A DNA stretch of 64,000 bases from a virus. The stretch's first letter is position 1. Each line of letters opens with the position of its first letter. Made by a program: the position numbers and the translations under genes. The stretch lies in UHGV virus genome UHGV-0279745. The stretch is one strand, 5' to 3'. Shown piece after piece: positions 4,533 to 62,077 of this stretch. Under the pieces are notes generated by a model that worked only from the letters and a program-made list of their open reading frames with translations, had not been told where the DNA came from and ran no database searches.

Positions 4533-4570
4533 TCGGTGGGGGTAAACCCCCCACCTTTTATTTTTTTGTT
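4533..4570 (+). terminator. intrinsic terminator
   Basis: ggtggggg-taaa-cccccacc hairpin followed by a long T-run. Confidence 0.7.
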
Positions 4571-4592: not shown

Positions 4593-4614
4593 AGATATAT
4601 ATTACCTAGGTGAG
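4593..4614 (+). promoter_or_regulatory. candidate early-type phage promoter element, copy 2 (agatatatattacctaggtgag)
   Basis: Contains TATATTAC; lies between a terminator and the next gene; followed by a gtgagag/ctctcac hairpin (4610..4631). Confidence 0.45.
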
Positions 4615-8489: not shown

Positions 8490-8492
8490 CGT

Positions 8493-8540
8493 TTGGGAGA
8501 ACCTTCGGGTTCTCCCTTTCTTTATTTTTTTTTCTTTTTA
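8493..8540 (+). terminator. intrinsic terminator
   Basis: gggagaacc-ttcg-ggttctccc hairpin plus long T-run. Confidence 0.7.
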
Positions 8541-8569
8541 CACCACACTCCGTCTTTATGGAGGTGGGT

Positions 8570-22730: not shown

Positions 22731-22745
22731 ATATTATCCAGGTGT
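22726..22745 (+). promoter_or_regulatory. candidate promoter-like element, variant class (agatagatattatccaggtg)
   Basis: AGATATTATC core upstream of the 22767 gene. Confidence 0.25.
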
Positions 22746-28190: not shown

Positions 28191-29687
28191 ATGGCAGGCC
28201 CAACTAAGCAAGTTATCGGTGAAGTAATTCGTCCACGTTTTAACGTTTACACCATCATGGATCATGCCTTAGGTAACTACGAAAAAGGTGAAGATGGTTT
28301 GTACTACCTTAACGGTGGTTTTGCCCACATCATGGGTTTCGCAGGTCGCGGTAACACTTTTAAATCCACCTTGTTAGATTTCTGTATCTTCCAAATCCTG
28401 CAACGTTATAAAGCAGAGTGGGGTTCTAAGTACGATACAGAAGTGTCCGCTGCCCTCGATCGTTTAGAAACTGGGTACATCTCTGCCATGAACGCCAACG
28501 GTATCGACGACGGAACATCTGTACTGGAGCTTATCCACGAAGGTCGTTATAACCTGGTCGGTTCTGACGTAATGCCTGGGGAACAGTATTACAGTGATTA
28601 TATTCGTGATGAAGTTGAAAAACGCTTCAAACAGTATATGTCTGGTAAGACCCGTGTAACACCGTTCCCCGATCCGGTTCGTCGTAAGTTAAAAGAAATC
28701 CTGGACCCCTGGCTTTATTCTATCGACTCCCTGTCAGAGTGGCATTCCAGTTCGCTGGAAGACAAACACGCAAAAACGGATATCGGGGATTCTGATCAGA
28801 ACATCCTGAACGCCCACGACGCACTGCAAAAATCGAATATGATGAGCCGCTGGCCGTCTGCGTTTGCACGCGGCGGTTTTTACATGGGCTTCGTGGCACA
28901 GATGGCCGATGACTCTGGGAAAGCGATGGCGGGTGGCCGACAGGCTCAAAAAGCAAATGCGAAAATTCTCGACGACGCCAACGACGATTTAAAATTCGCA
29001 GGTATTCCTCGACGTCAGCTTAGCTTTTTAACAAACTCTTTTATCGTCGCGACGAAATCAGGTGAGCTGAAGAAAGACCAGAGCTATAACGCACAGACCG
29101 GTGTTAACGAAGAACTTTATCCGACGTCACGTTCTAAAGCGATGAATGCGTCGGTAAACGACTTGAAGATTATCACCTTTACCCAGTATCGTGCGAAGGG
29201 TGGTCACACCGGTGTGAAATTCCAGATGATCTTCTCTCAGGAAATGGGTCTGTTGTATCACCTGAGCCTGTGGCATTATTTAAGTGACACGCTGAAGAAG
29301 TCAGACTTTGGTTTCACATCAAGCGGTAGTGGAGGTTCCATCAAAGAACTTGACATTCTACCTGGTGTGAAATTCCAACGCACGACAATCCGTGATATGA
29401 TTTCTGATAACGCACGCTTACGTCGCGCTTTAGAAATCACTGCGGCAATTGCGTATATGCAAAACAACTACCATCGTCTTGAAATGAAGTATCATCTCAG
29501 CATGGGTGAGATTTACAAACTGATTGACGAGAAGTGGGACTGGAATGAAATTCTGGATAACACGGTAGAATACTGGATGTTTAAAGACCAGGAAACCAAA
29601 GGCGGTAAACGTACACTGACTGCACGTACCATTCTGGGTATGGCTGTTGATGGGCTAGAACCGAAGTTCCTGACGAAAAAGAAATAA
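28191..29687 (+). CDS. RecA/UvsX-family ATPase (putative recombinase)
   Basis: Walker A-like FAGRGNTFKST and Walker B-like LYSIDSL, which I recall as resembling the T4 UvsX motifs; longer than typical UvsX. Confidence 0.45.
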   Translation: MAGPTKQVIGEVIRPRFNVYTIMDHALGNYEKGEDGLYYLNGGFAHIMGFAGRGNTFKSTLLDFCIFQILQRYKAEWGSKYDTEVSAALDRLETGYISAMNANGIDDGTSVLELIHEGRYNLVGSDVMPGEQYYSDYIRDEVEKRFKQYMSGKTRVTPFPDPVRRKLKEILDPWLYSIDSLSEWHSSSLEDKHAKTDIGDSDQNILNAHDALQKSNMMSRWPSAFARGGFYMGFVAQMADDSGKAMAGGRQAQKANAKILDDANDDLKFAGIPRRQLSFLTNSFIVATKSGELKKDQSYNAQTGVNEELYPTSRSKAMNASVNDLKIITFTQYRAKGGHTGVKFQMIFSQEMGLLYHLSLWHYLSDTLKKSDFGFTSSGSGGSIKELDILPGVKFQRTTIRDMISDNARLRRALEITAAIAYMQNNYHRLEMKYHLSMGEIYKLIDEKWDWNEILDNTVEYWMFKDQETKGGKRTLTARTILGMAVDGLEPKFLTKKK

Positions 29688-29731: not shown

Positions 29732-30031
29732 ATGCGTTATCAAACGGAGATTGTGGAACGCTTAAGTGAAGGATTGGCAAGTGTTAATTTAGAAACAGCG
29801 GCCGAATTTCGTGAAGCCTTCACTCACCCGTTTCCCGATCTGGAATCCTTTTGTTTAAAGGTCGCTGAGTATTACTCGAATCTATTAGTACGTTACGGGT
29901 ATGCGCCAGTACGTTCCGAACTTCCTGAAAACACGGAAGCTATCAGCTACTGGATTGACCTGCTTGAAGCAGAAACGTTATCCAATTTACGTAAGGCGGT
30001 AGACAATGAAACTCGAACCAGCGCGGCGTAA
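29732..30031 (+). CDS. hypothetical protein
   Basis: ORF track; RBS cctaaggagtc. Confidence 0.5.
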   Translation: MRYQTEIVERLSEGLASVNLETAAEFREAFTHPFPDLESFCLKVAEYYSNLLVRYGYAPVRSELPENTEAISYWIDLLEAETLSNLRKAVDNETRTSAA

Positions 30032-30674
30032 AAAGGCGGAAGCCTACGCCTTACAAATCTTAAAGTTGGTAGACCCTTCTGGCATTAATGCTGAAGCCGC
30101 GAAGAAAGCCTTCGCACGAATGACCGACGAACAGTTTAACCGACTTCGTAACGGTTTACCTATTTACAACCCGGTGGGAAGTAAAGTCGAAATTGACCAC
30201 CTGCGCAATATCGAGGTGTGCAAAATTCTCGGGGTAAACCTGGAGCAACGACTCTGGTTAACAGAACCAAAAACGGGTGTTTATCACCGTACTCGTTACC
30301 CTCACTTAGTCTTACGCTTGCCTGTCCGTCGTCAGACACAGATGCAAGAAAAGAAAATGGCGGTTGCGAAAAACGACAAAGTTCGCGATAAACTCTCCGG
30401 TCAAGTCGTCGGACCTTCCAAAGCATCCGGGGTGTCCTTCCCAGAGGCATACATCATGTATTCCGATGGTCACGACTGGACACTGAAAGAGTTCTTGTGG
30501 GCGCGTGGTGGTAACGACGCACTACAACGTGCTTTCTATCAATCTCTGCGCCAAACCGGTAAAGGGCGTATTGATTTGCCTGGAGCGGAGCGAACGAGTT
30601 CTAAAGCAACGCGTACGTGGTCAGCGTACCTAAAAGCGATGCATATCGGTAACAACATAGGCCATCCGTCATGA
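30006..30674 (+). CDS. hypothetical protein (start uncertain)
   Basis: ORF track; overlaps upstream gene by 26 nt in another frame. Confidence 0.45.
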   Translation: MKLEPARRKKAEAYALQILKLVDPSGINAEAAKKAFARMTDEQFNRLRNGLPIYNPVGSKVEIDHLRNIEVCKILGVNLEQRLWLTEPKTGVYHRTRYPHLVLRLPVRRQTQMQEKKMAVAKNDKVRDKLSGQVVGPSKASGVSFPEAYIMYSDGHDWTLKEFLWARGGNDALQRAFYQSLRQTGKGRIDLPGAERTSSKATRTWSAYLKAMHIGNNIGHPS

Positions 30675-31811: not shown

Positions 31812-31844
31812 TCTTACTACCTCAATTTCAAAAAGAAGTCAGAC

Positions 31845-31862
31845 AGATATTATCTACGTGAG
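31845..31862 (+). promoter_or_regulatory. candidate promoter-like element, variant class (agatattatctacgtgag)
   Basis: In the divergent intergenic region, about 20 nt upstream of the RBS of the 31883 gene. Confidence 0.3.
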
Positions 31863-37928: not shown

Positions 37929-38248
37929 TGGTTACGAACGACAATATCAAGAAAAAGATTGACGAAATTATAAGCGTCAGTTTAGATAGAATCGAATTAA
38001 TTCCCGAAACTAAGGAGATCAAATATTACGTTCCTGCGGACGAACTATTTCCAGGTCTTCTTAGAATCTCACCAAAAAAGGTTGAAGAGGCTAAACGGCA
38101 ATTCGAAGTTCGTGGCCTTAAGGTTGACATTGTTAACAAAAAACATTTCCATGTAACGTATAGCCAGGAAAACATTATATTTAGTCCTGAACAAGCGCAA
38201 CGTAATTTAGATATTTTAACGAAACGAATGGGGAATAATAACAAATGA
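37928..38248 (+). CDS. hypothetical protein
   Basis: ORF track; ATGA overlaps. Confidence 0.55.
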
Positions 38249-39279
38249 AACAGTATTTAGCGTTAATGCAAGACATTCTGGATAACGGTGTTGTCAAGAA
38301 AGACCGCACAGGTGTAGGGACACTATCTGTATTTGGTCGTCAACTACGTTTTGATCTGAAAGAAGGTTTCCCATTAGTTACTACGAAGAAGGTTCACCTG
38401 AAAAGTATCATTCATGAACTGTTGTGGTTCTTAAACGGTGACACTAACGTGAAGTACCTGCAAGAGAACGGGGTAAAAATCTGGAACGAATGGAGTGATG
38501 AAGAGGGGAACTTAGGGCCAGTTTATGGTAAACAATGGCGCGAATGGCGCGACTGTAAAGTTGTGGAGTGTCATGACGTAAGACGTACACAACAACTAAT
38601 GCAGCGGGGTTACAAGTATATTGGGAATATGAAGGAAGATGGTACGACGTATTTGGTTTATGAAAAACCACATGACCAGATCAGCAAAGTTATCCAACAA
38701 CTTCGTGAAGACCCTGACTCCCGCCGTATTATCGTTAGCGCCTGGAATGTAAGTGACCTGGACGACATGGCACTTAATCCGTGTCATAACTACTTCCAGT
38801 TCTACACTACAGAAATGACACTGCTTGAGCGACTGGATTGGTACGAAGCAAATGAACCGGAAAAATTTGCGAACGCGCCACTTATTAATCACGAAGATAT
38901 TGATGATGAAGAACGACTTCATGAAACTTTGGATCGTGAAGGTATCCCTCGTCGTAAGCTTTCATGTTTTTACATGATGCGCAGCAACGATGTCGCATTA
39001 GGAAAACCGTTCAACATCGCGTCATACGCTCTGTTAACTCATATAGTTGCCCAACAAGTGAATATGGTTCCCGATGAGTTAGTTTATAGTGGGGTCGATG
39101 TGCATTTATATCTGAACCACATCGATCAAATAAAACTCCAGTTGACTCGTGAGCCGTACCCGTTACCTAAATTGGTTATTAAACGTAAACCCGAATCTAT
39201 CTTCGACTACAAATACGAGGACTTTGAAGTAGTCGGTTACCAATCACACCCACACATCGCTATGCCTGTCGCGGTGTAA
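38245..39279 (+). CDS. thyA: thymidylate synthase (ThyA family) with two insertions
   Basis: Near-identical blocks to bacterial ThyA as I recall it ([71 protein letters not shown]); 344 aa versus about 264 for E. coli ThyA. Confidence 0.85.
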
Positions 39280-40357: not shown

Positions 40358-41191
40358 ATGGGCGAACGTTTTGACATCAACACTATTTACAACATCGTAG
40401 TTAATCCTGGTCAACACCTGGAAGAAGTTAACGCGCAACTGCGCGCTCTGAATGAGAATGCAGTACAGTTCGATGCTATTTACACAATTGGTGTAAACCC
40501 TGGCACCAACCGTATTCGTGTAGAAGGTAAACGCCACACCGGTAATCAAGAACTGGACATCGAAACAATTGTAGCGCCTATTAAGCTTACCGATGCTGTT
40601 TACAACGGCACGGTAATGCATACAGAATCTGTTCCGGTCTACTCTATTGAAAACTGTGTAGAACGTGTTAAAGGTTGGTCTAAAGAACGTGGTATTCTCG
40701 ATAACGGTAAACTGGAAACCCAAATCACGAAGTTCTTTGAAGAGTTAGGTGAAATTGCGGCGGGTATCAGTAAAAACAAACCTGAGTTGATCATGGATGG
40801 TATTGGTGATGCGTTGGTGGTTCTGGTAAACATCATCGAATTAGGGGATGCTTATTCTGGTCACCTTACAGTGGCAGAAGACTGCATCGAGTCTGGTCTA
40901 CGCTTAGGTGTGGAAGATGTAGCTGAAGTTGAAGAAAATTTAAACAACGCTGGATACCCACATCAACAATACCTTCACGCTATTGAAAGTTTTGCCACAA
41001 CCTTTATGGAAGGCAAAGATCATGGTTTCGATTTCGTTAGCCTGGGTTTAGCTCATCTTGCTCGTATCGCCTTGTATTACAAACTGGACATTCGTCATTG
41101 TTTCTCTTTGGCCTGGCACGAAATCAAAGACCGTAAAGGTTACCTGAACGCCGACGGTATCTTTGTAAAAGAAGCAGACCTGGCGAAATAA
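40358..41191 (+). CDS. MazG-like nucleoside triphosphate pyrophosphohydrolase domain protein
   Basis: C-terminal half shows EELGEIA ... DGIGDALVVL ... WHEIKDRKG pattern typical of MazG/all-alpha NTP-PPase. Confidence 0.55.
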   Translation: MGERFDINTIYNIVVNPGQHLEEVNAQLRALNENAVQFDAIYTIGVNPGTNRIRVEGKRHTGNQELDIETIVAPIKLTDAVYNGTVMHTESVPVYSIENCVERVKGWSKERGILDNGKLETQITKFFEELGEIAAGISKNKPELIMDGIGDALVVLVNIIELGDAYSGHLTVAEDCIESGLRLGVEDVAEVEENLNNAGYPHQQYLHAIESFATTFMEGKDHGFDFVSLGLAHLARIALYYKLDIRHCFSLAWHEIKDRKGYLNADGIFVKEADLAK

Positions 41192-44049: not shown

Positions 44050-47000
44050 TTACGCCGATTTACGACTAACGTCGAGTTGTGGCGCTGGTTGGGTTATTGA
44101 CACGTTACGTGACGCCGAACCCGGAGCGGTTGACGCAGGGTTAGCCGGTCCGTTTTGCATAGCCTGTGGTCGCTGACGAAGAATTGTTACAATCTCTTTC
44201 AGGTAGCCCGCAGACTCTTTTGCAACCGCCAGCTGCTGTACGCTGATCGGATCACCGCTGTTCACTGTAGAGCCGGTCTGTGCATCGGAAGTTACTGTTG
44301 GTGCAGGGCGGACTGATTTCTCCATCTGCTGTCTAGCACCTTCTTTTACTTTAGCAACATCCTCTTCGGCCAGGCCGTCAGCACGAGCATTTTGACCCAC
44401 CGTATCTACAACAACTGACGCATCACTCGGTGTCACGTCGCCGCCGGGGCTCGGCACCGCCGGACCACCGCCCGTCGCAGCTTTAATGTCATCGGCCCCC
44501 ATTGCACCTTTATCTGCTAAGGCTGTGTCACGATTCGCCTCGTTCGCAGCTGGCAGGTTATCTGCCGGGCCTGTGATGGACGGATCGTTAGCAGCGCCCG
44601 CAGCGATGGCTGGGGATGACGGCATTGGCGTTACGCCAGTCGTCAAGTCTTTCACCGATGCCTGATTGCCCGCAATTGCGTTTGTTCCTACTGCACCAAT
44701 CTTACCACCCATGATGCTGAGCACTTCATCCAAACTACGCAATTTTCCATTCTTGTAGAAAATTGTGCTGTTTGCCGCGATTTGATCGGCCGATGCACCA
44801 CGCGATGACGGACCGTTCGGATCACGCTTCCATTCTTGCAGGAATTTCTTACCGCCACCTTGTCCTAAGAAGTGGTAGAGGTAAACTGCCGCACCGGGAG
44901 GATCGATGCCACCTAAATCCTTTCTGGCTTTCTCGATATTGTCACGAATATGGCGGACACCAAGCAGGGCATTCGCCCACGGGTCATACTGGTCGGTTTG
45001 CGGGATACCGTAACGTCTAGCGTAAGCTTTCATCTGCTCACTCCAGGTACCGTTGATGAACTGGAACAAGCCAGCTGCAGAACTTCCTTTAGCTTTGATG
45101 CCGTATCTAAGTCCTGATTCTGCTTGTGCCATTCCCAGCGCTAACGCTGGAGGAACACCCATCATCTTCGCTACGTCTATAATCAGTGCTGCGACCGCAT
45201 TCAGGTTAGGCTTCAATCCGTCACCCAACGTTGAAATTGGATACTTAGCCGCTAACGTTTTATAATCACCGTCTTGCATCTCGCCAAGCTTCACACCGAA
45301 GTTACCGGTACTAAACGCGGCGTAATTCTTAGCCCCCATCTGACCATAAGCACCAGCCAAATCGTTTGGCGTGCCGTAATTACCACCGTCATTCGCTGCC
45401 GGTTGAAGCAGATCGCGATAAGAGGAGGAAGTATTCATCTGTTGCCGAGGTGGTTGGTCCTTCTCGTCATCGGTCAAGAACATCTGAGTCGCACGATCTT
45501 TTCGCTGCCAGTTCACACGGAAACCAGCAGAAGGCGTAGCACGCAGCGTTTTACGTACTGCCAAATCAGCTTCCTTAGACAGTTCTTTCAGGTTCTCTAA
45601 CTCCGTTGCAACTGAACCAGCGTCAGTGTTAGCATCACCCCCTAACGGGTTAAACGGTACCTCCCACACCGATTGGCGAATACCCCCTTTCAGGTTGTAC
45701 GCACCACGCATCATCAGTGCGATTTCATACAAGAACCCGCCTGTAACGCGTAGGTCCATCGGATCGGCAGCAGGGACATAACGTTTCACCCCAACCACGT
45801 ACGTCATGAAGACAGGTAAGAAGCGGTTATAGAACCAGTTCTTGTACCGATCTTCTTTTGGTCCACCAATAGCGTCAGGTGCAATCACTGCAATCGCACG
45901 TTTCCAGTCTCCTTTATACGTACAACTTTTCACATCAGTGTCTTGCAACACTTGACGTTCTAGGAGCGTATAGAGGTTACGGGTTGTTTGAGTAATGCTC
46001 ACCGCACCATAAGCTTTCAACCTTACAGATTCCAAATCACGGAGATCGGTTTCTTTAGGTAAGCTTCTCCAGTCAACTTGAACCTGAACTTGTTCGGTGC
46101 CGTCTTCCCAACCTTCAACCTTTGCAACCTCTTTGTTGCGTTCCGCATCCGCTTGAGCCAACGCTTGGGTCGATTCCGCCACAGAAGCAACTTTGTGTCC
46201 TTCGGCCACGCTGCCCGTAGCATTTACATCCTTACGTTTTTCATCACGACGCATGTTAATCGAACGAAGCACGCGTTCTTGTGCTTCAACGACTTCTTCA
46301 CCTGACAAAAACTCGGCCGGGGTAAACGTTACGAAATCCCACGCTTTAGAGAACCAACCTTGGTTAACCTTGCGGGGGTCTTCTAATGCACGGAATGCAG
46401 GTGCGTCTTTCGACATCTTCATTTTGTTAAAGATGTTCAACATGTCTGCTTTCGACACTTTCGCTGGATTACCGACGTCTGCTAACGCGATATCGTTATC
46501 CATCGATTTCAGTGCCGTAATCCAACGTAAGTAAATAGGCACAAAACGTTGTAGCATAAACGCACTAAACGCCAGCATTTCGCCTTTGTCTTCTACGTTA
46601 GTACCAAACCCTTCGGCCAGTTTCTTCACATCGTCACCAGACAAACCACGCAGCTGCGCTTGACCGTTCTCTGTATAAGAGATATACGGTTTCAAGTTGT
46701 CTTCTAAATAACGTGCTTTTGCACCGTCGTCGGAAGACCATTCATCATGGTCTCTAAAACCGTACTGCGCCAATCGCATGTTATCTAGGTACTGGGCATT
46801 TACACGATCTTTAGTTTTATAATAAAACCACGTTAACCCTGCGCCAGCGGCTACCAAACCGATAATCGGCCAGCCAACCGCAGTTACCACTGCAGATGCA
46901 GCTGTCGCGACAGCACTCACCGCAGGGACAGCCAAACGGGTCACGGCAAACTTACCAACGTTCCACAACGCTTTGCCTGCAAATCCGACCGGCTTGAAGA

Positions 47001-50000
47001 TTCCCCATTTTGCAAGTTTACCTAAGATTGAACCCACTGTGCCTAAAATACTCACGATTGGTCCTACCAACGGCAATCCTTTAAGGAAATCCATTACCCC
47101 ACGTTTACCACCTTTCTTCTCAGCCTCTTTCTTAGCCTTTTCCTCTTCCTTAGAACGCCGACGGCGTCGGAAGAACTGGAAGTAATCGCGTTTTTCATCA
47201 CTGGCAGGCGGCTTATTGCGTTGGCCGAACTTACTGAACATAGTTCTTAACAAACCTTCCGAAGCACCTGCTTTTTCCGCAGAATCACGCATGGTGTTAA
47301 ACCATGACATTTCCTGAAGATTAACCATTCGGTTCAGGCGTTCCAGTAAAGCTGACCCAACGCTACGGGCTTTCTGTTTCCCTTTATTAATCACACGTCC
47401 AGCGCTATCCGTTACGGTGTCTAAGTCTTCTTTTGCCGCATCGATGATACGTGTTTTAGACACCTTGCCTCTTGCGTAGATGTGCTGACGATAAAACTCA
47501 GCAACATCGTCATCGCGTCCTGCTAAACGACTCTCCATTCGATAACGTGTGCCGATATCGTAACGTGGGTCTCGGAAAGTATCGACCATATCGCTTGCAC
47601 GGCCACGGAAACGATCAAACCAACCACGTGCGGCACCGCCCCAACGAGAAAGACGACCACCTACCGCACTGCGATAACGGGACATTCTGTCACGCATCCG
47701 ACCACGCCAATCCCGGAACCCCTGAAAATGTTCACGGAACCCATCACGTATGTCTTTAGCACGTTGGAATAATCCTTTAACTGAGCTGGCTCCCGTATTC
47801 CGTTCCATCTGTTCTGTCCAGGTATCATCTTCTGGTTCACCTGGCAATCTCCGGTTAAGGAGTTTGTAGATACGGATTAAGATGTGGTTAGTTTTACGGC
47901 CGTTCGACCATGAGAACACACTAAACCCACCACCAGAACCCCCTTCCTTACGGTTCTGCCACCAACGTGTCAGAGGGTTATCAGAAGCCAACTCTTTGAG
48001 CTTCTCAAATCCGCGTTTTGCATTGTTCCACAAACGTGCTGGCATTCCCGTTACACGGGAAATCATGCTTTGTAAACGGGTTTTCTCTGCACCCTCTGGA
48101 ACCTCATTTAACCACTCGCGTGCTTTCTCGAACAACGAAGCCGCTTTAGGCGAAATGAAACCCAGAAGTTTCTTCGGTAAAGTCACAGCTTTGTTTACCG
48201 CCGTTCCTGCTTTCCCAGAAATGTACTGGAAAAGCGCTTGAACTTTACCACCTTTGTAGAAACGCAGTTTACCTGCGGCAGCCAAATCAGCAGCAGCTAA
48301 GATTAAATTACCCGCTTCATCGACGATGTCACGTCCCAGTTTAATATCGTCGAGAGTTTTAAGTTGAATCAGCTTCTCAGTTTTCGGGTCAGCCTGGTAA
48401 TATTCCCCAGCTTCTAAACGACTTCCTTGTAATACGACGTTGCCACGTTCATCGTAGATGTCGCGAACGCCTAAAACACCTTTACCGAAAGCTACGGCAG
48501 AATTCCAACCCGTCGATAATGTACCGGTTACTAACCCTTTCAGTCGGCTAAATACGCCGGGACCTTCGGAGGAACCGCCTGAGAATTTCCCACGAATAAA
48601 ACCACCTAATGCTTGTAGGCGATCTTTCCCACGTAGGAACAGATTCTTACCAAACCGTCCTACACCAGAACCGGTATCCCAAAGCACTCCAGCCCAGCGA
48701 CGTAACAAACCTGTCTCGCCTAGTACAATACGTTTGCGCTTACGACGACGTTTACGGCCCGATTCACTCGAACTTTCAGGTTCGTCGCCGTCATCACGAC
48801 TACCGCCTAAACTGGCTAGAAGAATACCTTCCTCATCCATGTTCTTAACGTGTTTGAGGATATCTTGCACGGTGCTAGATTCAGGCTGTTTACGTACGGC
48901 ATCAATCAATCGATCGAACTGTTGTTCCAGCCCGGCGTTCGTATCTGGACGGCTGCTTAAGAGCTCAACAAAGTTGGTAGATTTCTCTCCATAAAGTACC
49001 GCAGCGAGTTGACGGGCGCTTAAACCACGACCGCGACCACCTTTTCCACCACCACGTACGTTGGACAGTTCTTTGTCTTCAAAGCTCGGCTCTGCTCCTG
49101 CACCCATCCGACGCAAGTAATCACCCAACGCAGAACCATTTTGCAGCTTACGTTGAATCTCTTGCTCACGGGTTAACGAACGGCCAGAACGGGTCTTACC
49201 CATCGACAGGTCGTTAAATAGCGTATAGGGATCGTTAATGTCCTTATCGACTTCGAAAATGTCGTTCTTCGCATCGTATTTAAAAATACCGGAATCGCGA
49301 AGTGCGTTCTCGCCGTAAATCACAGACGCAGCATCAACCGTGTCTTGACGTGCACGAATCGTTGACTGAATAGCGGCTATTTTGTTTGAAATCGCATTAC
49401 TCAGTTCATGGTGACCGCCAACCAGTTCCGCAGAACGGGCTTCTAAAACACCCTGAATCGCTTCCACAGCGTTTGCGTTCATGTAACGATACATGTGCAT
49501 CGGGTCTTTCAATAAAGACCCTACATCGAACGCTTTCCCTTCCGAGGCACGAGACTCGATGTAGTCCGCTAACGCCTGACGTGTTTTCCTATCGAGCGTT
49601 TTATCTTTATCGATAAAGTCGACAGTGTCGTTGATGTACGTCTGTAAACGTTTGCGCTGATCGTCATTAGCAACGGCCTTACGTACACGATTACCAATAA
49701 CTTTGCGATCAACCATACCGCGCGTGGTCAGGTCGTATACCTGATCGTGGTGTTCGCCATACCCACGACGAATAGATTTGTTAATCTCGGACAGTAACGT
49801 CGGAATAACTTCGGTGATACTAAGGTAAGCTTTACGATCGAATTTCGCTGCGGCAGAAAGAGATTCCGCAGAGCGATCGTCTAATGCTAAGGTTTCGCGA
49901 CGTAGCGGGTTAACTAGCCCCAATTCGTGCATTAGTCGAAACAGATCAGCTAACGGACCGCTTGTTTCTCCCGCTATTGCCGAGTTAGAAATAGACGACA

Positions 50001-51174
50001 AATTTCCAAAGCCATACTTCGCCAACTGTAGGCGTTTCATGACTTCTGGGTTTTTCTCTAACTCGCCACGGGTCCAGTTCTGAAGACGCTCGATCTGGGG
50101 TTGTAAGAGACGTTTTGCTAACCAACCACCTGCAAAACCTGCCGCTTTATTACGCGAGTTTGTGTTACGACGGTCAGGAGACAACGATGAGCTGTCCGAC
50201 ATGTCAAAGTCATCTTCCTGAGCCATCCCTAGAACTTGTTCTAGAATCCCACGACCATCACTAAAGATGTTCGAGATTTTCTTCTTCGCGTTTTCGCGAA
50301 TCTGACCAATGAAATTATCTGCGTAGTGTAAGGGGTTCATCCACTCCGCAGCTTTACGTTTTACATTAGCCCAACGAATTTCAGAAAACTCTTCCTTCGC
50401 GTAGTCGGGTAGTGCCGTGTTCTTAACGATGGCTTCTAATGCCGGGGTGTTGCGTGCAAACTCGTCTTGTTTGAGTTTCGCAATATCCTGCAAAGCAAAC
50501 AATGTCCGATATTGCAGCTCTAACTGCTTACGCTGAACATTCAACAACACGCCACGACTTAAGCTAGTCGTTAAGTTGACGTCTTTTGCAATACCGATTA
50601 CGGTCTGGAACAGCGCGTCGGACTTCATGTCCTTAATCGTGTCGCGCAAGCGGTCTTCAACCATCCCCTCTTGCGCCTCACGTTGCTGGTCCGCTGTTTG
50701 CGGTGCACCTGAGAACACGCTGTCCAGCTCACGATCCATCATCGCTTGTTTAGGATCGTAATTCCCATAGTCGATTTGATCGTTACGTGCCCACTTGTCG
50801 ATTTTCCGTGTTACGGATTCCGGTAAATACCGTTTCAGTGTTGGGCCTAACTGTCTCGCTTGCATCTTAACGACGCGAGACGTCTTTTCAATCTCGTCTT
50901 TCGTATGGGCCAGAATGTCTTGACCTGCGGCTTTAACGTTTTGATAGCCTTCGTAGGCTTCTGCCGCAGGTTTAGGCATCCCTTTTAAAATAACCTGATC
51001 ACGTTTGTTTTCGGGCCAGATAGTCGACAACGCCGACTTACGGGCAGCACGAAATGTGTCCATGACCGGGTTACGCGATTGGTCTTGTTGACGAGGGGGC
51101 TCATCAAAATCGTCCCAGTCGTCCATGTTATCAAGATCGATTTCATCGAAATCATCTTTACCTTTTTTAGCCAT
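44050..51174 (-). CDS. giant virion-type protein (2374 aa) with transmembrane segments and C-terminal lytic transglycosylase (SLT) domain
   Basis: Uninterrupted 7.1-kb ORF; SLT motif GMAQAESGLRYG...GLFQF encoded about 44830..45160; Gly/Ala-rich hydrophobic helices about 46800..47090; acidic N-terminus. Confidence 0.8.
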   Translation of the reverse strand: MAKKGKDDFDEIDLDNMDDWDDFDEPPRQQDQSRNPVMDTFRAARKSALSTIWPENKRDQVILKGMPKPAAEAYEGYQNVKAAGQDILAHTKDEIEKTSRVVKMQARQLGPTLKRYLPESVTRKIDKWARNDQIDYGNYDPKQAMMDRELDSVFSGAPQTADQQREAQEGMVEDRLRDTIKDMKSDALFQTVIGIAKDVNLTTSLSRGVLLNVQRKQLELQYRTLFALQDIAKLKQDEFARNTPALEAIVKNTALPDYAKEEFSEIRWANVKRKAAEWMNPLHYADNFIGQIRENAKKKISNIFSDGRGILEQVLGMAQEDDFDMSDSSSLSPDRRNTNSRNKAAGFAGGWLAKRLLQPQIERLQNWTRGELEKNPEVMKRLQLAKYGFGNLSSISNSAIAGETSGPLADLFRLMHELGLVNPLRRETLALDDRSAESLSAAAKFDRKAYLSITEVIPTLLSEINKSIRRGYGEHHDQVYDLTTRGMVDRKVIGNRVRKAVANDDQRKRLQTYINDTVDFIDKDKTLDRKTRQALADYIESRASEGKAFDVGSLLKDPMHMYRYMNANAVEAIQGVLEARSAELVGGHHELSNAISNKIAAIQSTIRARQDTVDAASVIYGENALRDSGIFKYDAKNDIFEVDKDINDPYTLFNDLSMGKTRSGRSLTREQEIQRKLQNGSALGDYLRRMGAGAEPSFEDKELSNVRGGGKGGRGRGLSARQLAAVLYGEKSTNFVELLSSRPDTNAGLEQQFDRLIDAVRKQPESSTVQDILKHVKNMDEEGILLASLGGSRDDGDEPESSSESGRKRRRKRKRIVLGETGLLRRWAGVLWDTGSGVGRFGKNLFLRGKDRLQALGGFIRGKFSGGSSEGPGVFSRLKGLVTGTLSTGWNSAVAFGKGVLGVRDIYDERGNVVLQGSRLEAGEYYQADPKTEKLIQLKTLDDIKLGRDIVDEAGNLILAAADLAAAGKLRFYKGGKVQALFQYISGKAGTAVNKAVTLPKKLLGFISPKAASLFEKAREWLNEVPEGAEKTRLQSMISRVTGMPARLWNNAKRGFEKLKELASDNPLTRWWQNRKEGGSGGGFSVFSWSNGRKTNHILIRIYKLLNRRLPGEPEDDTWTEQMERNTGASSVKGLFQRAKDIRDGFREHFQGFRDWRGRMRDRMSRYRSAVGGRLSRWGGAARGWFDRFRGRASDMVDTFRDPRYDIGTRYRMESRLAGRDDDVAEFYRQHIYARGKVSKTRIIDAAKEDLDTVTDSAGRVINKGKQKARSVGSALLERLNRMVNLQEMSWFNTMRDSAEKAGASEGLLRTMFSKFGQRNKPPASDEKRDYFQFFRRRRRSKEEEKAKKEAEKKGGKRGVMDFLKGLPLVGPIVSILGTVGSILGKLAKWGIFKPVGFAGKALWNVGKFAVTRLAVPAVSAVATAASAVVTAVGWPIIGLVAAGAGLTWFYYKTKDRVNAQYLDNMRLAQYGFRDHDEWSSDDGAKARYLEDNLKPYISYTENGQAQLRGLSGDDVKKLAEGFGTNVEDKGEMLAFSAFMLQRFVPIYLRWITALKSMDNDIALADVGNPAKVSKADMLNIFNKMKMSKDAPAFRALEDPRKVNQGWFSKAWDFVTFTPAEFLSGEEVVEAQERVLRSINMRRDEKRKDVNATGSVAEGHKVASVAESTQALAQADAERNKEVAKVEGWEDGTEQVQVQVDWRSLPKETDLRDLESVRLKAYGAVSITQTTRNLYTLLERQVLQDTDVKSCTYKGDWKRAIAVIAPDAIGGPKEDRYKNWFYNRFLPVFMTYVVGVKRYVPAADPMDLRVTGGFLYEIALMMRGAYNLKGGIRQSVWEVPFNPLGGDANTDAGSVATELENLKELSKEADLAVRKTLRATPSAGFRVNWQRKDRATQMFLTDDEKDQPPRQQMNTSSSYRDLLQPAANDGGNYGTPNDLAGAYGQMGAKNYAAFSTGNFGVKLGEMQDGDYKTLAAKYPISTLGDGLKPNLNAVAALIIDVAKMMGVPPALALGMAQAESGLRYGIKAKGSSAAGLFQFINGTWSEQMKAYARRYGIPQTDQYDPWANALLGVRHIRDNIEKARKDLGGIDPPGAAVYLYHFLGQGGGKKFLQEWKRDPNGPSSRGASADQIAANSTIFYKNGKLRSLDEVLSIMGGKIGAVGTNAIAGNQASVKDLTTGVTPMPSSPAIAAGAANDPSITGPADNLPAANEANRDTALADKGAMGADDIKAATGGGPAVPSPGGDVTPSDASVVVDTVGQNARADGLAEEDVAKVKEGARQQMEKSVRPAPTVTSDAQTGSTVNSGDPISVQQLAVAKESAGYLKEIVTILRQRPQAMQNGPANPASTAPGSASRNVSITQPAPQLDVSRKSA

Positions 51175-51203
51175 AACGTTTAATCCGTATCAGGAGATTT
51201 AGC

Positions 51204-52823
51204 GTGAATAAACTTAATTGGGTTGACTTTTATCTGCTCAATGTAAACAAGTCTCTTGTGTCGCGATTACGACCCGTCACGACCACGGATACTTTCCAGG
51301 GGTTAACAAAAAACTTTCACCCCGAAGGTCTTTACTCTACAGAGATATTTGGACTCACGGGGAGTGAAGCGCGAGACTCTACTTTCTCTTATATCGATAT
51401 TAAACTCGATATCATTTCGCCGACGGTGTGTTTGGCGTTATTCCAACTCAAACAACTCTACGAAGAAATTTGTTCTGGAAAACGCTACGCAACGTGGAGC
51501 GAAAAAGAAAAAGATTTCGAACCGGCCTTGCCGGGAGACCCAGGCGCAGATACCGGTTTTAACTTCTTCCTCAGTCACTATAACGATTTAAAACCTAAGC
51601 GTAACGAGTCCCTACAACGTGACGAAACCGTGGATTTCTTTTTGAAATTCCGTCCCGTTAGTCTTAGTCGATACGTTCTCGTGTTACCCGCGGGTTTACG
51701 CGATTTAGTAATTCGACAAGATGGTAGAGAACAGGAAGAAGAAATCGGCGGGATGTATCGTCGGTTGGTATCACTCGCCAGGGCGATCCCTGACCGAGCA
51801 ACCCGTGTTGAATTAACTAACCCCGTACGCTGGAAGCTGCAACAAACCTTCAACGATATCTGGATGTATTTCTTTAACATCCAAGACGGTAAAGGGGGTT
51901 TCCAACGTCGTAAAGTGACGTCTCGTAAATTAATGAACGGGACACGTAACGTACTGTCCTCATTCTCGACGGGGTCTAAGTGCATGGGTCGTGAAGACGC
52001 TATTCGTCCCACCGACACCAAAATTGGTTTATACCAGGGCTTAAAAGCGTTACTCCCCGTTGCGCAATACCAGATACGTGAACGTTACCTCGGTAACATC
52101 CGTGCTGGTGACGGCAACCTTTACGGCGTAAACACCAAAACCCTTAAACGTGAATTCTTGGAAGTAGGTGGTCGTGTATACGACACATTCACCACCGACG
52201 ATGGGATTGAATCCTTAATCAACCGAATGGAAGCTCGCGAGCTTCGCCATCAGCCGATTATGTTGGACGACACCCACTACGTTGCGTTGGTTTACCAAGA
52301 CACCAAACATTTTAAGGTGTTCTACGATATTGAAGAACTTCCTAAAACGTTTGACCGAAAATTCGTCCACGGTATGACGCTCGTCGAATTGCTTTATTTG
52401 TCGGGCTACGAGCTTTGGAACGATTATTTCGGTTTCGTTACACGTTATCCCGTTACAGGCCGAGGCTCGACGTATTCATCGACCATAAGATTGGAGACCA
52501 CCACATCATCTTTATACTTAAAAGAACTGGAAGATGACTGGGAAACTGAAAAACCCCGAGGGGCTATCAGCTACCCTGACCGGTCGGTTCCTACCTTCGT
52601 TGAGTCGATGGCACCACACCCTTCACGCTTAGGTGGCTTAGGGGGTGACTACGACGGCGATACCGGGTCGTTTAACGCGCCTATGTCCCAGGAAGCACTC
52701 GAGGAAAACCGGAATTGGATACACTCGAAAAACTACTGGTTCGATTCTGATGGGAACTTTAAAATCAATCCTATCAACAACGTGATTAAACGTGCAACGC
52801 AAGCGTTATTAAAGAACCCATAA
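51204..52823 (+). CDS. multisubunit RNA polymerase beta-prime-like subunit (N-terminal catalytic fragment), putative
   Basis: GTG start with CAGGAG RBS; aa 482-486 DYDGD (nt 52647..52661) followed by NAPMSQEALEE, matching the beta-prime NADFDGD...PL..EA..EA active-site region. Confidence 0.5.
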   Translation: MNKLNWVDFYLLNVNKSLVSRLRPVTTTDTFQGLTKNFHPEGLYSTEIFGLTGSEARDSTFSYIDIKLDIISPTVCLALFQLKQLYEEICSGKRYATWSEKEKDFEPALPGDPGADTGFNFFLSHYNDLKPKRNESLQRDETVDFFLKFRPVSLSRYVLVLPAGLRDLVIRQDGREQEEEIGGMYRRLVSLARAIPDRATRVELTNPVRWKLQQTFNDIWMYFFNIQDGKGGFQRRKVTSRKLMNGTRNVLSSFSTGSKCMGREDAIRPTDTKIGLYQGLKALLPVAQYQIRERYLGNIRAGDGNLYGVNTKTLKREFLEVGGRVYDTFTTDDGIESLINRMEARELRHQPIMLDDTHYVALVYQDTKHFKVFYDIEELPKTFDRKFVHGMTLVELLYLSGYELWNDYFGFVTRYPVTGRGSTYSSTIRLETTTSSLYLKELEDDWETEKPRGAISYPDRSVPTFVESMAPHPSRLGGLGGDYDGDTGSFNAPMSQEALEENRNWIHSKNYWFDSDGNFKINPINNVIKRATQALLKNP

Positions 52824-52832
52824 GGCTAAGCA

Positions 52833-55800
52833 ATGCTGCTCATTAAACAGTTTAACCAACGCTTCTCGGTGCGTAAAACTGACGAGTTTGGTAATCCGAG
52901 GATTATCCCGCTCGAGAAGCTACAGATACCACGTGGTTCTGTACTCCATGTCATTGATCTCGACCAGGTGGTATTAGCGCCACCTGCAACACTCGAGATT
53001 ATTCAACCGTTAGAAAAACCTGCACAGGTTCGTCACCACTTTAAATTACCGGAAGACGGTATTAGCGGTCATCCGCGCAACAAACCTGTTCAGGGGCAAG
53101 AACGTGCTATCTTTGCTTACCACCGTGCAAACCGCCCGATGCGTCGTCTTACCTCAGACGATCTGGTTCGCAAAGACTTAAAAGTTCTCCTGGTCGAGAA
53201 CTACACACCGATGCTATCGCACTACTACTATCCTGACACCCAGTTAGCCTGGTACGATAGACTGCGTAACATCCAACTGTTGATGATTAACCAGTTCAAA
53301 TACGACACGCAAGAATACATGCGTCAGAACTATTTCGTTATTGAACTGGGTTCGACTCTACCTTCGTTCCAGAAGTTTCAAACAACCTATAACGACCGCG
53401 TTAAGAGCAAGATTGAGAAGTTCCAGGACTTCAACTTGCTGTGGTTATTGGAGTTGTTTGCTTGGGCTTATGGAAAACAATCCGATTCCCTATTCTCGGG
53501 AATGGATTTAACTCAGCTGTCACGAATGAACTTTATCTTCACCCACAACACGGGCTTTACGTCCATGAACATGGGTGTTGTAGAGAAAATGCGTAAGTCG
53601 TCCGGCGGTCGTTTAAGTGATGACCAAATGGCCAGGATGTTCTACCGTACGCTGGTGCGTGTAATGACACAAGCACCGTCTAACGCGTACGAAGCTGAAT
53701 TCCTAACGCCTGAAGGCGACGAGCGTGTTTTCCTTAAAGACGTCGAAGAAGAAACCGTTGATGTTGTCGACGATGACGATGTTGTTAATGACGCTGTGGT
53801 GGAATCCGATAACACCTTCGATGAAAAAGAAGACGTTGTTATTGAAGAACCGAAGGAAGACGTCAAACCGACGACCATCGTCGTCGAGAAAGTCATTCCA
53901 CATGACGAGATTATTAAACAGGAAGCACAACGCTTAGCTGAAGCGGGCCGCTTAAGTTCTAAAGCATATCAGTTCCTGTCAGAATCGTCTAAACGTTTCG
54001 TTCAGCTACCTAACCCGTATAACCCGAAAGAAACCTACGGGGAAGCACTGACTGTTCACGAGAAAGATATTGTCGTTAAAGCCGAACCGAAAAAAGTTCA
54101 GCGGCTTGTTACCGATGAAGGGTGGGCAGAGAACGTCACCGACCAGATGGTGAAACAATACAACCAGACCATGATGACCAAAGACGTACTGGCGGCGGTC
54201 GCCAGTTCACAACGTTTGGGTCTGGCGGTTCACAACCACACGGTGGAAAAAGAAGTTTCTGTTACAGGAACTATCGAGCACCACACTTTACGTGTTCAGC
54301 CAGTCGGTGGTGAGCCAACAACCGTTCGCTTCTCTATCCCAGGCTTGACCGAGGACGGTACTTGGGTCGCTAATGGTGTCGAATACACCATGCGTCGCCA
54401 ACGTGTGGACTTACCGATTCGTAAAGTTGCACCGGATACTGTCGCACTGACTACCGCTTACGGTAAAAACTTTGTCCGTCGTAGTGATAAGGTCGCGAAC
54501 GATTACGGTCGTTGGTTAACCAACGCGATTATCACACGCGCTGTTGACCCAACAAACACCGAAGTCACCGATGCACGTTTAGCAAATGTGTTCGATCCTA
54601 CGCAACATCTGCCTCGTCAGTATACGGAGATTGCACGCCGTATTGCCAGCTTTAATGCGAACGGCTATATGTGGAACTTCGACTACAAAGAAGCCGTTAA
54701 CTTCTTTAACGACGAGCAACTCAGAGACGCCGATGCTGCCAAACTTCTGCCAGTGGCGAAACGTCCGCGTAGTGAAACAATCCTGGCAATGGATGACAAA
54801 TCCATGCTTTACGGTGTGAACGGAAACAAAGTTGAACCGGTGGGGACTATCGCAGAGGTACTGGGCTTTAATAACCAGAAAGTGCCTCGCGAAATGACCG
54901 AGCTGTCTTTGATGGGTAAATCTTTGTCGCTTGGTTTTATCTTCTCGTTCTATCTTGGACTCCAGGGAATGTTGAAACATTTCGGTATCCAGTACGAGTT
55001 GGTTCCTACAGGACAGCGTGTTGATAAGAATGCCTACGACAGTATTATTCGACTACAAGACTGTAAACTTTTAGTTACTTGCGATAACGATCAGCAGAGG
55101 ATGATTCTGCATGGTTTGGATCGCTATCTCAAACACCTGGTTGCTTATACCGAATCAGAAGCAGACCGCGAAGACATTTACCTGAACTTATTACGTGAAG
55201 CAGATGGCCTAACGCCACGGTACATCAACGAGCTGAAACAGATGCGGTCCGCGTTTGTTGACGACATGCACGCACGTATCCTCAGGAAAATGGGTGAGCC
55301 GGAAACCTTTATTGGCTTGCTGGAACGTTCTAACGAACTGTTACAAACCGACCACTCTTTACCAGAGATTAACGGCGATGAAATGATGTTCTTAGGAAAT
55401 CAGAGGATTGCCTACCACATCTATACTGCGATGGTCAGAGCGATGCGTAACTACAATAACGCACCGGGCAGTAACCGTAAGTTCGAACTGACGCAAGATA
55501 TGGTTTGGGGTGCTATTAACTCCGACCCGTCGGTACTTTTGGCACCAGGCGCTAACCCTATCCAGTCAATTAAAGAAAAAGACGTTATTACGATGGGGGG
55601 TACAGGTGGTCGTAATCGTAAAACGATGGTCTACCACACACGTGAGTTCCAACCCAGTGATATCGGGATAGTCTCGGGTAACACCGTAGATAACGGCGAC
55701 GTAGGGATTACTGCTTTCGTCACCAATAACCCACGTTTTGACACCGTTGACGGTACTACGTTTAAGCGTGAAGAGAAAACCCCGAAACCGAGCGATACCC

Positions 55801-56999
55801 TTTCGTTTATTGACGGGTTAGTACCCGATACGTTAATGGACGATGCAAAACGTCAAAACTTCGTTGGGATTCAGTTAGGTTCTGCCACCAGTTGTAATGG
55901 GGCAACCACAACCCCGTATCGTACTGAACAGGAGAAATTCGTCGCTCACCGTACTTCGGTGAAACATGCACGCGTTATTGATAAAGCAGGTAAGATTACT
56001 GGTCTGTCGAAAGACCACATTGAAATTACGTACGAAGATGGAAGTAAAGAAGCCTTTCCTCTAGGGCGCTGGTTCGGCCCCCACGAAGGTACCTTCTATC
56101 CGCACACCTTGGTAACACGCTGGAAAGCCGGTGACAAGCTCCCGGCCGGAGCAGTGATTACGTACAACGAGCAACACTTTGAACCTGATATTTACGATCC
56201 TACTCAGGTTTCCTGGAAAAACGGGGTGCTGGCCACCGTTGCTTTATTAGAAGCTGAAGAAGTTATCGAAGACTCCAACGCAATTTCTGAACGGTTCGCG
56301 AAGAAAATGGTGGGGCAGGTAACAAAGCTGAAAGAAGTGACGATTAACAGCAACCAGATGCTTTTGGAAATCGTGAATGAGGGCGACCACGTAGACGTCG
56401 ATACAATCCTATGCACGTTTACTGACGACTTGACGGGCGATATGAGTGCCTTTAGTCAGGAAGCAGCCGCAACGTTGCAAAGTTTAAGTTCGTACGCACC
56501 TCGTGCAGGGGTACGTGGTATCGTGGATAAAATCGAAGTGGTGTATCACGGTGAAACCGAAGACATGACACCAAGCCTTGCTGAACTGGTGCGTAAATAC
56601 GACAGAATTCGTCGTAAAGCCGCACTGGCAGTCGGACGTGGTGATCCGGTTTCAGGCAGTGTAAACGGCGACTACCGTGTCGAAGGTGTACCCTTGGCCT
56701 TTAACTCACTTTGTGTTCGATTCTTTATTACACACGACGTTGAGATGGCCGCTGCGGATAAGATGGTTATTGCTAACCAGCTAAAAACCACCGTACAAGA
56801 AGTCATGTACGGCGACAACAAAACAGAGGATGGCGATGACCTGGACGTGTTGTTCGGTCGCGATTCCGTCGATGCGCGTATCGTAGGTTCAATCCAACGT
56901 ATCGGTACCGCGAATGCTGTAGGTGAACAAGCCGGGATTCTCATCGGGCGTATACTCGATGGGGAGGCTGTGCCTGATTTACCCGCGACACTTAAATAA
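52833..56999 (+). CDS. large hypothetical protein (1388 aa), possibly a further RNAP subunit or virion protein
   Basis: ORF track; immediately downstream of the beta-prime-like gene; no motif recognised with confidence. Confidence 0.7.
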   Translation: MLLIKQFNQRFSVRKTDEFGNPRIIPLEKLQIPRGSVLHVIDLDQVVLAPPATLEIIQPLEKPAQVRHHFKLPEDGISGHPRNKPVQGQERAIFAYHRANRPMRRLTSDDLVRKDLKVLLVENYTPMLSHYYYPDTQLAWYDRLRNIQLLMINQFKYDTQEYMRQNYFVIELGSTLPSFQKFQTTYNDRVKSKIEKFQDFNLLWLLELFAWAYGKQSDSLFSGMDLTQLSRMNFIFTHNTGFTSMNMGVVEKMRKSSGGRLSDDQMARMFYRTLVRVMTQAPSNAYEAEFLTPEGDERVFLKDVEEETVDVVDDDDVVNDAVVESDNTFDEKEDVVIEEPKEDVKPTTIVVEKVIPHDEIIKQEAQRLAEAGRLSSKAYQFLSESSKRFVQLPNPYNPKETYGEALTVHEKDIVVKAEPKKVQRLVTDEGWAENVTDQMVKQYNQTMMTKDVLAAVASSQRLGLAVHNHTVEKEVSVTGTIEHHTLRVQPVGGEPTTVRFSIPGLTEDGTWVANGVEYTMRRQRVDLPIRKVAPDTVALTTAYGKNFVRRSDKVANDYGRWLTNAIITRAVDPTNTEVTDARLANVFDPTQHLPRQYTEIARRIASFNANGYMWNFDYKEAVNFFNDEQLRDADAAKLLPVAKRPRSETILAMDDKSMLYGVNGNKVEPVGTIAEVLGFNNQKVPREMTELSLMGKSLSLGFIFSFYLGLQGMLKHFGIQYELVPTGQRVDKNAYDSIIRLQDCKLLVTCDNDQQRMILHGLDRYLKHLVAYTESEADREDIYLNLLREADGLTPRYINELKQMRSAFVDDMHARILRKMGEPETFIGLLERSNELLQTDHSLPEINGDEMMFLGNQRIAYHIYTAMVRAMRNYNNAPGSNRKFELTQDMVWGAINSDPSVLLAPGANPIQSIKEKDVITMGGTGGRNRKTMVYHTREFQPSDIGIVSGNTVDNGDVGITAFVTNNPRFDTVDGTTFKREEKTPKPSDTLSFIDGLVPDTLMDDAKRQNFVGIQLGSATSCNGATTTPYRTEQEKFVAHRTSVKHARVIDKAGKITGLSKDHIEITYEDGSKEAFPLGRWFGPHEGTFYPHTLVTRWKAGDKLPAGAVITYNEQHFEPDIYDPTQVSWKNGVLATVALLEAEEVIEDSNAISERFAKKMVGQVTKLKEVTINSNQMLLEIVNEGDHVDVDTILCTFTDDLTGDMSAFSQEAAATLQSLSSYAPRAGVRGIVDKIEVVYHGETEDMTPSLAELVRKYDRIRRKAALAVGRGDPVSGSVNGDYRVEGVPLAFNSLCVRFFITHDVEMAAADKMVIANQLKTTVQEVMYGDNKTEDGDDLDVLFGRDSVDARIVGSIQRIGTANAVGEQAGILIGRILDGEAVPDLPATLK

Positions 57000-58797: not shown

Positions 58798-58815
58798 CGC
58801 GCTTAGGAGGTGATC

Positions 58816-59544
58816 GTGAGTGCGATTGAAACAGCCCGTCGTGACCCTACTAAGGTTCATGCGGACTTGGTAAATAACGGCACGGTCACCACTACCAAAG
58901 GGGGATGTTACATTTACATCCCCGTTGGGTTTGTGGCGAAAGAGTTGGCGGTTATTTCTTCTACGGTAACAATTGTAGGGATCTTTGCGATTTCTACCGA
59001 CCGTAAAACATATGGGGTGTCCAGCGTTACAACGCTTATGGAGATTACCCCAACGGCGTTTGAAGAGATCGACGTCTTTGGTGTTCCTTATTACGAATTT
59101 CGTTTTGATCCCGGTACAGTGGTTTTCCCCAACCGCAATTTACAGGTGTTGTCTCACCCTATTTACAACATTGCGTCGTATATTTACGACTTTGGTAATC
59201 GTCCTTTCTGGTTTACTGCAGCGGATGATGCTGAACTCTTGGCACCTGATAAAGTCAAGAAATGGAACGGTTTTACTGTATTTGCCGATCAGATTACCGC
59301 TGACGTTTACGCAGCACACACACAGCGTAAAGTAGGTGATCCGAGAACGTTCTTCCGTTACACGCTGAAGAAAGATAGCGATCTTAACAACCCTGTGCAG
59401 TTTATTCCATTGCGCAGTGGTTCACTTAACAAAACGTCGAGACTGGCGAAGCTTGCGGACGTGGAACTTAAACGTGGTATTCGTTCTGCGCTACAGGTTG
59501 ACCCGGTGCGTGCCGAACCGCTCGAAGATTTGTTTATGAGGTAA
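58816..59544 (+). CDS. hypothetical protein
   Basis: GTG 58816 with AGGAGG RBS (58810 GTG is too close to the RBS). Confidence 0.55.
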   Translation: MSAIETARRDPTKVHADLVNNGTVTTTKGGCYIYIPVGFVAKELAVISSTVTIVGIFAISTDRKTYGVSSVTTLMEITPTAFEEIDVFGVPYYEFRFDPGTVVFPNRNLQVLSHPIYNIASYIYDFGNRPFWFTAADDAELLAPDKVKKWNGFTVFADQITADVYAAHTQRKVGDPRTFFRYTLKKDSDLNNPVQFIPLRSGSLNKTSRLAKLADVELKRGIRSALQVDPVRAEPLEDLFMR

Positions 59545-59575: not shown

Positions 59576-60379
59576 ATGGACAATTTAACACTGCGTTACA
59601 ACTGCGTAGCGTTAGCCGGTGTTAACGCTCCAGCCACACTGGAGAAAGACGCGGATGGTTATTACCGCGTACTATTGGGTGCTTTGAATATCTTTAACTC
59701 GGAAGGGATTTTTTACGCCTATAACGAGTCTAAGCACGTATTCGAACGCTCGAACATCTTTATGCGTAAAGTGAAAGCAGGGAATCTGTTCGGGGAAGAA
59801 GATCACCCGGCACCAGAACCCGGTATGACCGAAGCGCAATGGATCGATCGCAACGAATGGATTGAGACGAAAAACGTCTGTATGCACATTCGTGAAGTTG
59901 AAGTGATTCCAACCGACCAAACCTGTAACGGGTTACCGGTTATGGAAATCTGGGGCTGGGTTAAGCCGAACCGCGAACGTGGTCCGTACTTAGCAGAAGC
60001 ACTCGAAAACCCACACCAGAACGTGTGTTTCTCTCTGCGTGCAATCGTACGTGAAGGTTATGTAGGTGGTGTGAAAACACGTCGCCTGGATCGCCTGGTA
60101 ACGTTTGACTGGGTTATCGAAGACGGGTTGCAGATTTGTAACAAATACTCTGCGATTCAACGCGGTAGTAAAGTGGCTCAAGAATCCACACGCGTTCTGT
60201 TGGACCGTCGCGTCTCTCTCCAGGCGCTGGAGGACATTCTGCGAAATCCTAACACCACGTCTACCATCGCGACAGAATCTCGTCGTGGTGAAGTTCGTGC
60301 GTTAGCGCAGGAGTACCTGGCCATCGCTAATAAGAAAACTAACCTGCGTGTTATGGGTTTAGGTAACGGGAAGTGGTAA
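59576..60379 (+). CDS. hypothetical protein
   Basis: ORF track. Confidence 0.6.
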   Translation: MDNLTLRYNCVALAGVNAPATLEKDADGYYRVLLGALNIFNSEGIFYAYNESKHVFERSNIFMRKVKAGNLFGEEDHPAPEPGMTEAQWIDRNEWIETKNVCMHIREVEVIPTDQTCNGLPVMEIWGWVKPNRERGPYLAEALENPHQNVCFSLRAIVREGYVGGVKTRRLDRLVTFDWVIEDGLQICNKYSAIQRGSKVAQESTRVLLDRRVSLQALEDILRNPNTTSTIATESRRGEVRALAQEYLAIANKKTNLRVMGLGNGKW

Positions 60380-62055: not shown

Positions 62056-62077
62056 AGATATATTTTACTTAGGTGAG
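62056..62077 (+). promoter_or_regulatory. candidate early-type phage promoter element, copy 3 (agatatattttacttaggtgag)
   Basis: Same motif and same terminator-promoter-gene arrangement as copy 2. Confidence 0.4.

Follow-up and report, generated by a model that had tools for sequence, protein, structure and literature searches.

The gene at positions 51204..52823 (+ strand) of the window, the stretch of 64,000 nucleotides of the virus genome UHGV-0279745 that was analysed here, encodes a protein of 539 aa that is almost certainly the catalytic, N-terminal piece of the beta-prime-like subunit in a virion RNA polymerase (vRNAP) of the phiKZ/SPN3US type, orthologous to SPN3US gp240 and phiKZ gp180. 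The subunit to which it is so plainly orthologous is in the literature, and its family and function are already known: SPN3US gp240 was identified as the N-terminal beta-prime fragment of the vRNAP and detected by mass spectrometry in virions, as well as in tailless heads (Thomas et al. 2016, PMC5105663). Translation starts at a GTG codon found 8 nt 3' of an AGGAG ribosome-binding (Shine-Dalgarno) site, as read from the sequence (51191..51195, + strand), and the resulting N-terminus agrees with that annotated for SPN3US gp240. The DYDGD motif, with the Mg2+-binding catalytic aspartate triad, is encoded by positions 52647..52661 (+ strand), and translation places it exactly where the initial annotation had put it, at aa 482-486 of this open reading frame. 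The protein continues with TGSFNAPMSQEALEEN after the motif, the translation of 52632-52709 being GGLGGDYDGDTGSFNAPMSQEALEEN, and its C-terminus lies 53 aa past DYDGD. Because the end comes so soon after the motif, the protein corresponds to the N-terminal part of beta-prime only and therefore would act only together with other fragments.

In the PHROGs collection the protein falls along its full length in phrog_2986 ('RNA polymerase beta subunit', E 7e-234), and a tblastn search of 50,697 phage genomes returned matches in 315 records, from phages of Pseudomonas, Erwinia, Salmonella, Vibrio, Serratia, Aeromonas, Klebsiella, Ralstonia, Staphylococcus and Bacillus. The best matches were Salmonella phage SPN3US, of 240 kb, and related phages, with 86% amino acid identity over 537 residues. 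The closest protein in a large database (96% identical) comes from a Salmonella assembly, in which the contig that encodes it measures 220,621 bp. The N-terminus, the GDYDGDTGS motif and 86% identity over the full length are common to the window protein and SPN3US gp240 (gene SPN3US_0240), from which it differs by 75 substitutions that all lie outside the catalytic loop. The order of genes is also that of SPN3US gp239-245, namely the giant SLT protein, the N-terminal beta fragment (beta-N) and the gp242-245-like proteins including the head protease. The nucleotide identity of the region to genomes of the SPN3US/phiEaH2 type is only about 73-75%, so that the window phage is a separate species within this group. 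The similarity extends to phiKZ gp180, which is annotated as a head protein and is collinear with the 539-aa protein at 32% identity (E 1e-73).

The surroundings of the gene likewise reproduce those found in phiKZ, where gp181 (+) is followed by gp180, 179, 178, 177.1, 177, 176 and 175 (-); the order in the window matches, and synteny with gp181/180/178/177/176/175 is complete. The gene on the other side, at 44050..51174 (- strand), encodes the counterpart of SPN3US gp239 and phiKZ gp181, a giant virion (tail-associated) protein of 2374 aa that provides context and is not part of the polymerase. This protein belongs to phrog_3201 (E 0), a PHROG of giant 'tail fiber' proteins, carries a C-terminal lytic transglycosylase domain (Pfam SLT, aa 1998-2085, E 2e-7) and has the position and orientation of SPN3US_0239 and of the PHIKZ181 'tail-associated endolysin'. 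The initial annotation was right in describing the beta-prime gene as divergently adjacent to a giant virion-type protein, and the arrangement that it gave for phiKZ, with the giant tail-associated lysin gp181 divergent to gp180 and gp178 next, is the one found there. The start codons of the two divergent genes are separated by just 29 bp (51175-51203), from which it follows that the promoters of one or both of them would lie inside coding sequence or further upstream.

Recognition of the protein as beta-prime depends on profiles and structure, given that single-sequence scans against Pfam and NCBIfam yielded nothing relevant for the 539-aa protein or for its partners, and that single-sequence phmmer against the PDB gave a match to beta-prime of only E 0.4, although both the protein and the residues matched were the correct ones, with DYDGD paired with the NADFDGD of plastid RpoC1. 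When 42 homologues that share 38-96% identity with the query were combined into a profile and this was compared with the PDB, all 60 listed matches were beta-prime or gamma chains in collinear alignment. The best match was a phage AR9 protein, the beta-prime subunit of its non-virion RNA polymerase (nvRNAP; E 2e-12, positions 36-255 to 29-257), followed by plastid RpoC1 (E 4e-9, 159-294 to 270-432), gamma (E 2e-8) and bacterial beta-prime (1e-6 to 3e-5). Positions 469-528 of the profile align with E. coli beta-prime 447-507, including its NADFDGD. Secondary support comes from an hhalign comparison with an E. coli beta-prime sequence that was not taken from a database record, in which the lid/rudder region was matched (E 6e-6).

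D482 is invariant in the alignment of homologues, and D484, G485 and D486 are present in 39/39 full-length homologues, in which the triad takes the form D-[FYH]-D-G-D; the only two rows without the latter three residues are proteins truncated at '..GAD'. The AlphaFold2 model calculated on the homologue alignment has a mean pLDDT of 82, with moderate values of 67-81 around the motif. Foldseek matched it in the PDB to AR9 beta-prime (E 4e-15) and to cellular RNAPs (about 1e-12) at 11-16% identity. At about 0.3 the global TM-scores are low, since the domains are arranged differently in the model of an isolated subunit and in targets that are much larger. In these structural matches the motif of the predicted model is located on the double-psi beta-barrel, in the beta-prime catalytic loop. 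The initial reading of DxDGD as the catalytic motif of beta-prime is borne out in this way by both of the comparisons it had proposed, the profile search and the superposition of a predicted structure, and homologues lacking the three aspartates, which would have spoken against it, were not found among those of full length. On these sequence comparisons, DYDGD is no chance match.

With cellular beta-prime the window protein shares the NADFDGD loop on the double-psi beta-barrel, the VLPxxLRP lid/rudder segment and the GKxGRxR...GRSV segment, and plastid RpoC1 and cyanobacterial gamma are likewise N-terminal beta-prime fragments, of about 620-690 aa. It differs from cellular beta-prime in its identity of about 12-15%, in being without the Cys4 element and, by homology, in belonging to a capsid-packaged enzyme. 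The N-terminal Cys4 element is typical of bacterial beta-prime members and is not universal. Inspection of the 539-aa sequence revealed C76, C90 and C260 as the only cysteines, with no CxC...CxxC cluster, and consequently no Cys4 zinc-binding element of the bacterial kind. As judged from the sequence, this absence is a divergence from bacterial beta-prime that is compatible with membership of the wider family.

That the top-scoring structure is the AR9 protein raises the question of whether the 539-aa protein may be the N-terminal beta-prime fragment of an nvRNAP, the enzyme made during infection to transcribe late genes. The AR9 (Bacillus phage) subunit (PDB 7S00/7S01, chain d) is paralogous, non-virion and concerned with late genes, and is 14-16% identical to the window protein. 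However, it ranks first, at a best E of 2e-12, only because the searches met no close vRNAP relative among the solved structures, no vRNAP-type chain having appeared among the PDB search matches. The identity of 86% over the full length and the identical gene context instead tie the protein to SPN3US gp240, which is found in the virion, and the head-protein annotation of phiKZ gp180 and the location of the window gene among those for the head protease and head proteins point in the same direction. The nvRNAP assignment is, therefore, quite improbable.

More improbable still is that the protein is a packaged structural pseudo-enzyme, in which the beta-prime fold has been kept and catalysis lost. 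The extreme divergence from cellular beta-prime, seen in the low identity to the structural matches, and the lack of the zinc-binding element could be taken in its favour, together with the fact that PMC5105663 and PMC7598289 describe no biochemical reconstitution of any vRNAP. Against it, conservation of the triad and its flanking residues extends to homologues with as little as 38% identity and so implies that catalysis is under selection, and the literature both assigns early transcription to the vRNAP (PMC5105663, PMC7598289) and describes transcription in phiKZ as independent of the host machinery. A chance occurrence of DxDGD, or descent from another two-barrel lineage such as crAss gp66-like, P23-45 gp96-like or QDE-1-like RdRP enzymes, has a negligible probability and is ruled out by the profile matches, the conservation of the aspartates and the fold matches. 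As for the single-chain virion RNAPs (crAss-like gp66, P23-45 gp96), the searches found neither closest structural similarity to them nor both barrels in one chain.

Assignment as the catalytic beta-prime fragment of a vRNAP is, then, the reading retained here, and comparison with phiKZ reveals a difference in the organization of the gene. In the phiKZ gp180 gene (L003 14159-17259, - strand) an interruption of about 1.4 kb follows directly on the codon for the first catalytic Asp ('LGAD | FDGDT'), and in it lie the gp179 open reading frame and an Rfam RF00028 group I intron (92 bits, E 6e-24). Annotated gp180 ends at '..LGAD', and the second exon reads FDGDTVSFNAVYSEEAIAE...; introns in gp180 are mentioned in PMC11512511. 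Unlike phiKZ gp180, the window gene is continuous and intron-free, and no Rfam family, introns included, was matched anywhere in the window. Among the database homologues, P0065 (479 aa) and P0084 (497 aa) also end at 'GAD', and several further homologues of 478-479 aa cover only 89% of the 539-aa query; these proteins probably carry the same interruption as phiKZ.

The remaining fragments of a split beta/beta-prime enzyme, for which a search had been suggested at the outset, are largely present: beta-N, the C-terminal beta fragment (beta-C) and a candidate C-terminal beta-prime fragment (beta-prime-C) are all encoded in the window, so that with the beta-prime-N protein 4/5 vRNAP polypeptides are accounted for. 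The beta-N gene (52833..56999, + strand; 1388 aa), the orthologue of SPN3US gp241 and phiKZ gp178, begins 9 nt after the beta-prime-N stop codon, and the adjoining product is the partner beta-type subunit that supplies the second barrel. The protein belongs to phrog_3148 (E 0) and is 77% identical to SPN3US gp241 and 32% to phiKZ gp178. In a single-sequence search of the PDB it gave only noise (laccases), and a 3-sequence profile matched Thermus RNAP beta with E 4e-8, with further weaker collinear segments that include GGxGGR...R and (G/A)DK. A long N-terminal extension (aa 1-~400), which has no counterpart in the beta match from the PDB, includes the highly acidic stretch DVEEETVDVVDDDDVVNDAVVESDNTFDEKEDVVIEEPKEDVK at aa ~295-345. 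Tentatively, on a weak alignment (0.8 bits), aa ~1308-1320 read AADKMVIANQLKT where bacterial beta has GDKxxxRHGNKG, so that RHGN is lost, whereas the final K is kept, as are D and K in GDK.

The beta-C gene, at 30006..30674 (+ strand), encodes a small protein (222 aa) of phrog_3233 ('RNA polymerase beta subunit', E 6e-93) with 83% identity to SPN3US_0218, its orthologue, and SPN3US gp218 is the vRNAP beta-C subunit (PMC5105663). The candidate beta-prime-C gene (58810..59544, + strand; 244 aa; phrog_2926, E 5e-91) is the orthologue of SPN3US gp244 and phiKZ gp176, to which its product is 87% and 30% identical, respectively. No RNAP match was obtained for this product either with a 3-sequence profile against the PDB or in NCBIfam, and its candidate role is taken from the literature, where it is assigned in PMC5105663 and PMC7598289, the published support for gp244 as the beta-prime C-terminus being weak (E 0.05, PMC5105663). 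A gp42-like protein, corresponding to the middle beta-prime fragment (beta-prime-M), was not seen among the window open reading frames examined, and is expected far off in the genome because it is encoded by gene 42 in SPN3US. On the 3' side of beta-N a 97-aa open reading frame is followed by the gp243/gp177-like head protein, the gp244/gp176-like protein and the head maturation protease (59576-60379). Elsewhere the window contains genes for an SbcC-like nuclease subunit (8354-11074), an RNase H-like ribonuclease (20548-22068), a UvsX-like recombinase (28191-29687), thymidylate synthase (38245-39279) and a MazG-like pyrophosphatase (40358-41191), and no tRNA genes.

On these relations, the 539-aa protein supplies the double-psi beta-barrel of the enzyme, with D482, D484 and D486 of the loop holding the catalytic Mg2+, and also contributes the lid/rudder-type segment VLVLPAGLRD...YRR...GKGGFQRRK...GTRNV. 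It is predicted to function solely within a split enzyme, as one of five polypeptides, with the beta-like protein contributing the second barrel. The other partners would be beta-C and a beta-prime-M whose gene lies beyond the window, with the gp244-like beta-prime-C fragment as a probable further one. By homology with SPN3US and phiKZ, the complex would be assembled late in infection, before packaging, and then enter the capsid; presence of the 539-aa protein in the virion head, in particular, is to be expected from its 86% identity to SPN3US gp240. In SPN3US, gp241 (beta-N) is essential and is needed for the packaging of all vRNAP subunits, particles of a gp241 amber mutant being without gp240, gp42, gp218 and gp244 (PMC5105663). 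Ejected with the DNA, the polymerase would, as in the model that a review summarizes, in which the vRNAP is carried in the virion and serves early genes and the nvRNAP serves late genes (PMC7598289), transcribe early phage genes without the host RNA polymerase.

As to the sites that such an enzyme may recognize, the review ascribes a conserved AT-rich motif of early promoters to all jumbo phages that encode an RNAP (PMC7598289). A pattern count in the window found a 20-nt AT-rich motif, AGAYAKATWTTAYYYANGTG, at 211-230, 4593-4612, 22725-22744, 31841-31860 and 62056-62075, all on the + strand, that is 5 copies against 0.06 expected by chance, with the pattern having been derived from the copies themselves. 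Those copies checked together with their flanks lie in short gaps directly 5' of + strand open reading frames. The copy at 4593 comes after a terminator formed by a GC hairpin and a T-run (about 4537-4570), and the surrounding sequence, of about 60 nt, has matches at 1-3 places in the unannotated intergenic DNA of SPN3US-like and phiEaH2-like phages. The only independent support is given by SPN3US itself, which has a copy of the motif in the equivalent gp248/gp249 gap (L001 22921-22940). These features suggest, tentatively and with slightly less than an even chance of being right, that AGAYAKATWTTAYYYANGTG is an early promoter read by the virion polymerase. No copy is found near 51175-51203. 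The 8-mer TATATTAC, which we take to be phiKZ-like, was also considered and is not enriched in the window (2 found, 1.85 expected).

AR9 recognizes its uracil-containing late promoters through gp226 (PMC7598289), whereas for the vRNAP no equivalent specificity factor is known, and PMC5105663 and PMC7598289 describe none. If the proposal for AGAYAKATWTTAYYYANGTG is correct, the window would hold both a catalytic subunit gene free of introns and the sites that the enzyme itself recognizes, and the SPN3US-clade enzyme with a defined promoter would constitute a practical system for the study of promoter finding by a sigma-less, five-piece, capsid-ejected polymerase.

The present analysis adds no new biology on the subunit itself, in that work on SPN3US from 2016 had already reported the protein with its catalytic motif, its presence in the virion and the genes around it, and the same features had been described earlier for phiKZ and 201phi2-1. 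The initial description of the element as a jumbo phage with its own transcription machinery stands as far as the machinery is concerned, the vRNAP genes being present; the term 'jumbo' is not readable from 64 kb, and is suggested instead by synteny with phages of ~240 kb and by the 96%-identical protein on the 220,621-bp contig. The gene set may be of use for annotation, for host-range work and in the choice of an intron-free set of vRNAP genes for expression. The source of the window would be a giant phage of the phiKZ/SPN3US type, one that enters the cell with an RNA polymerase of its own and is independent of host transcription.
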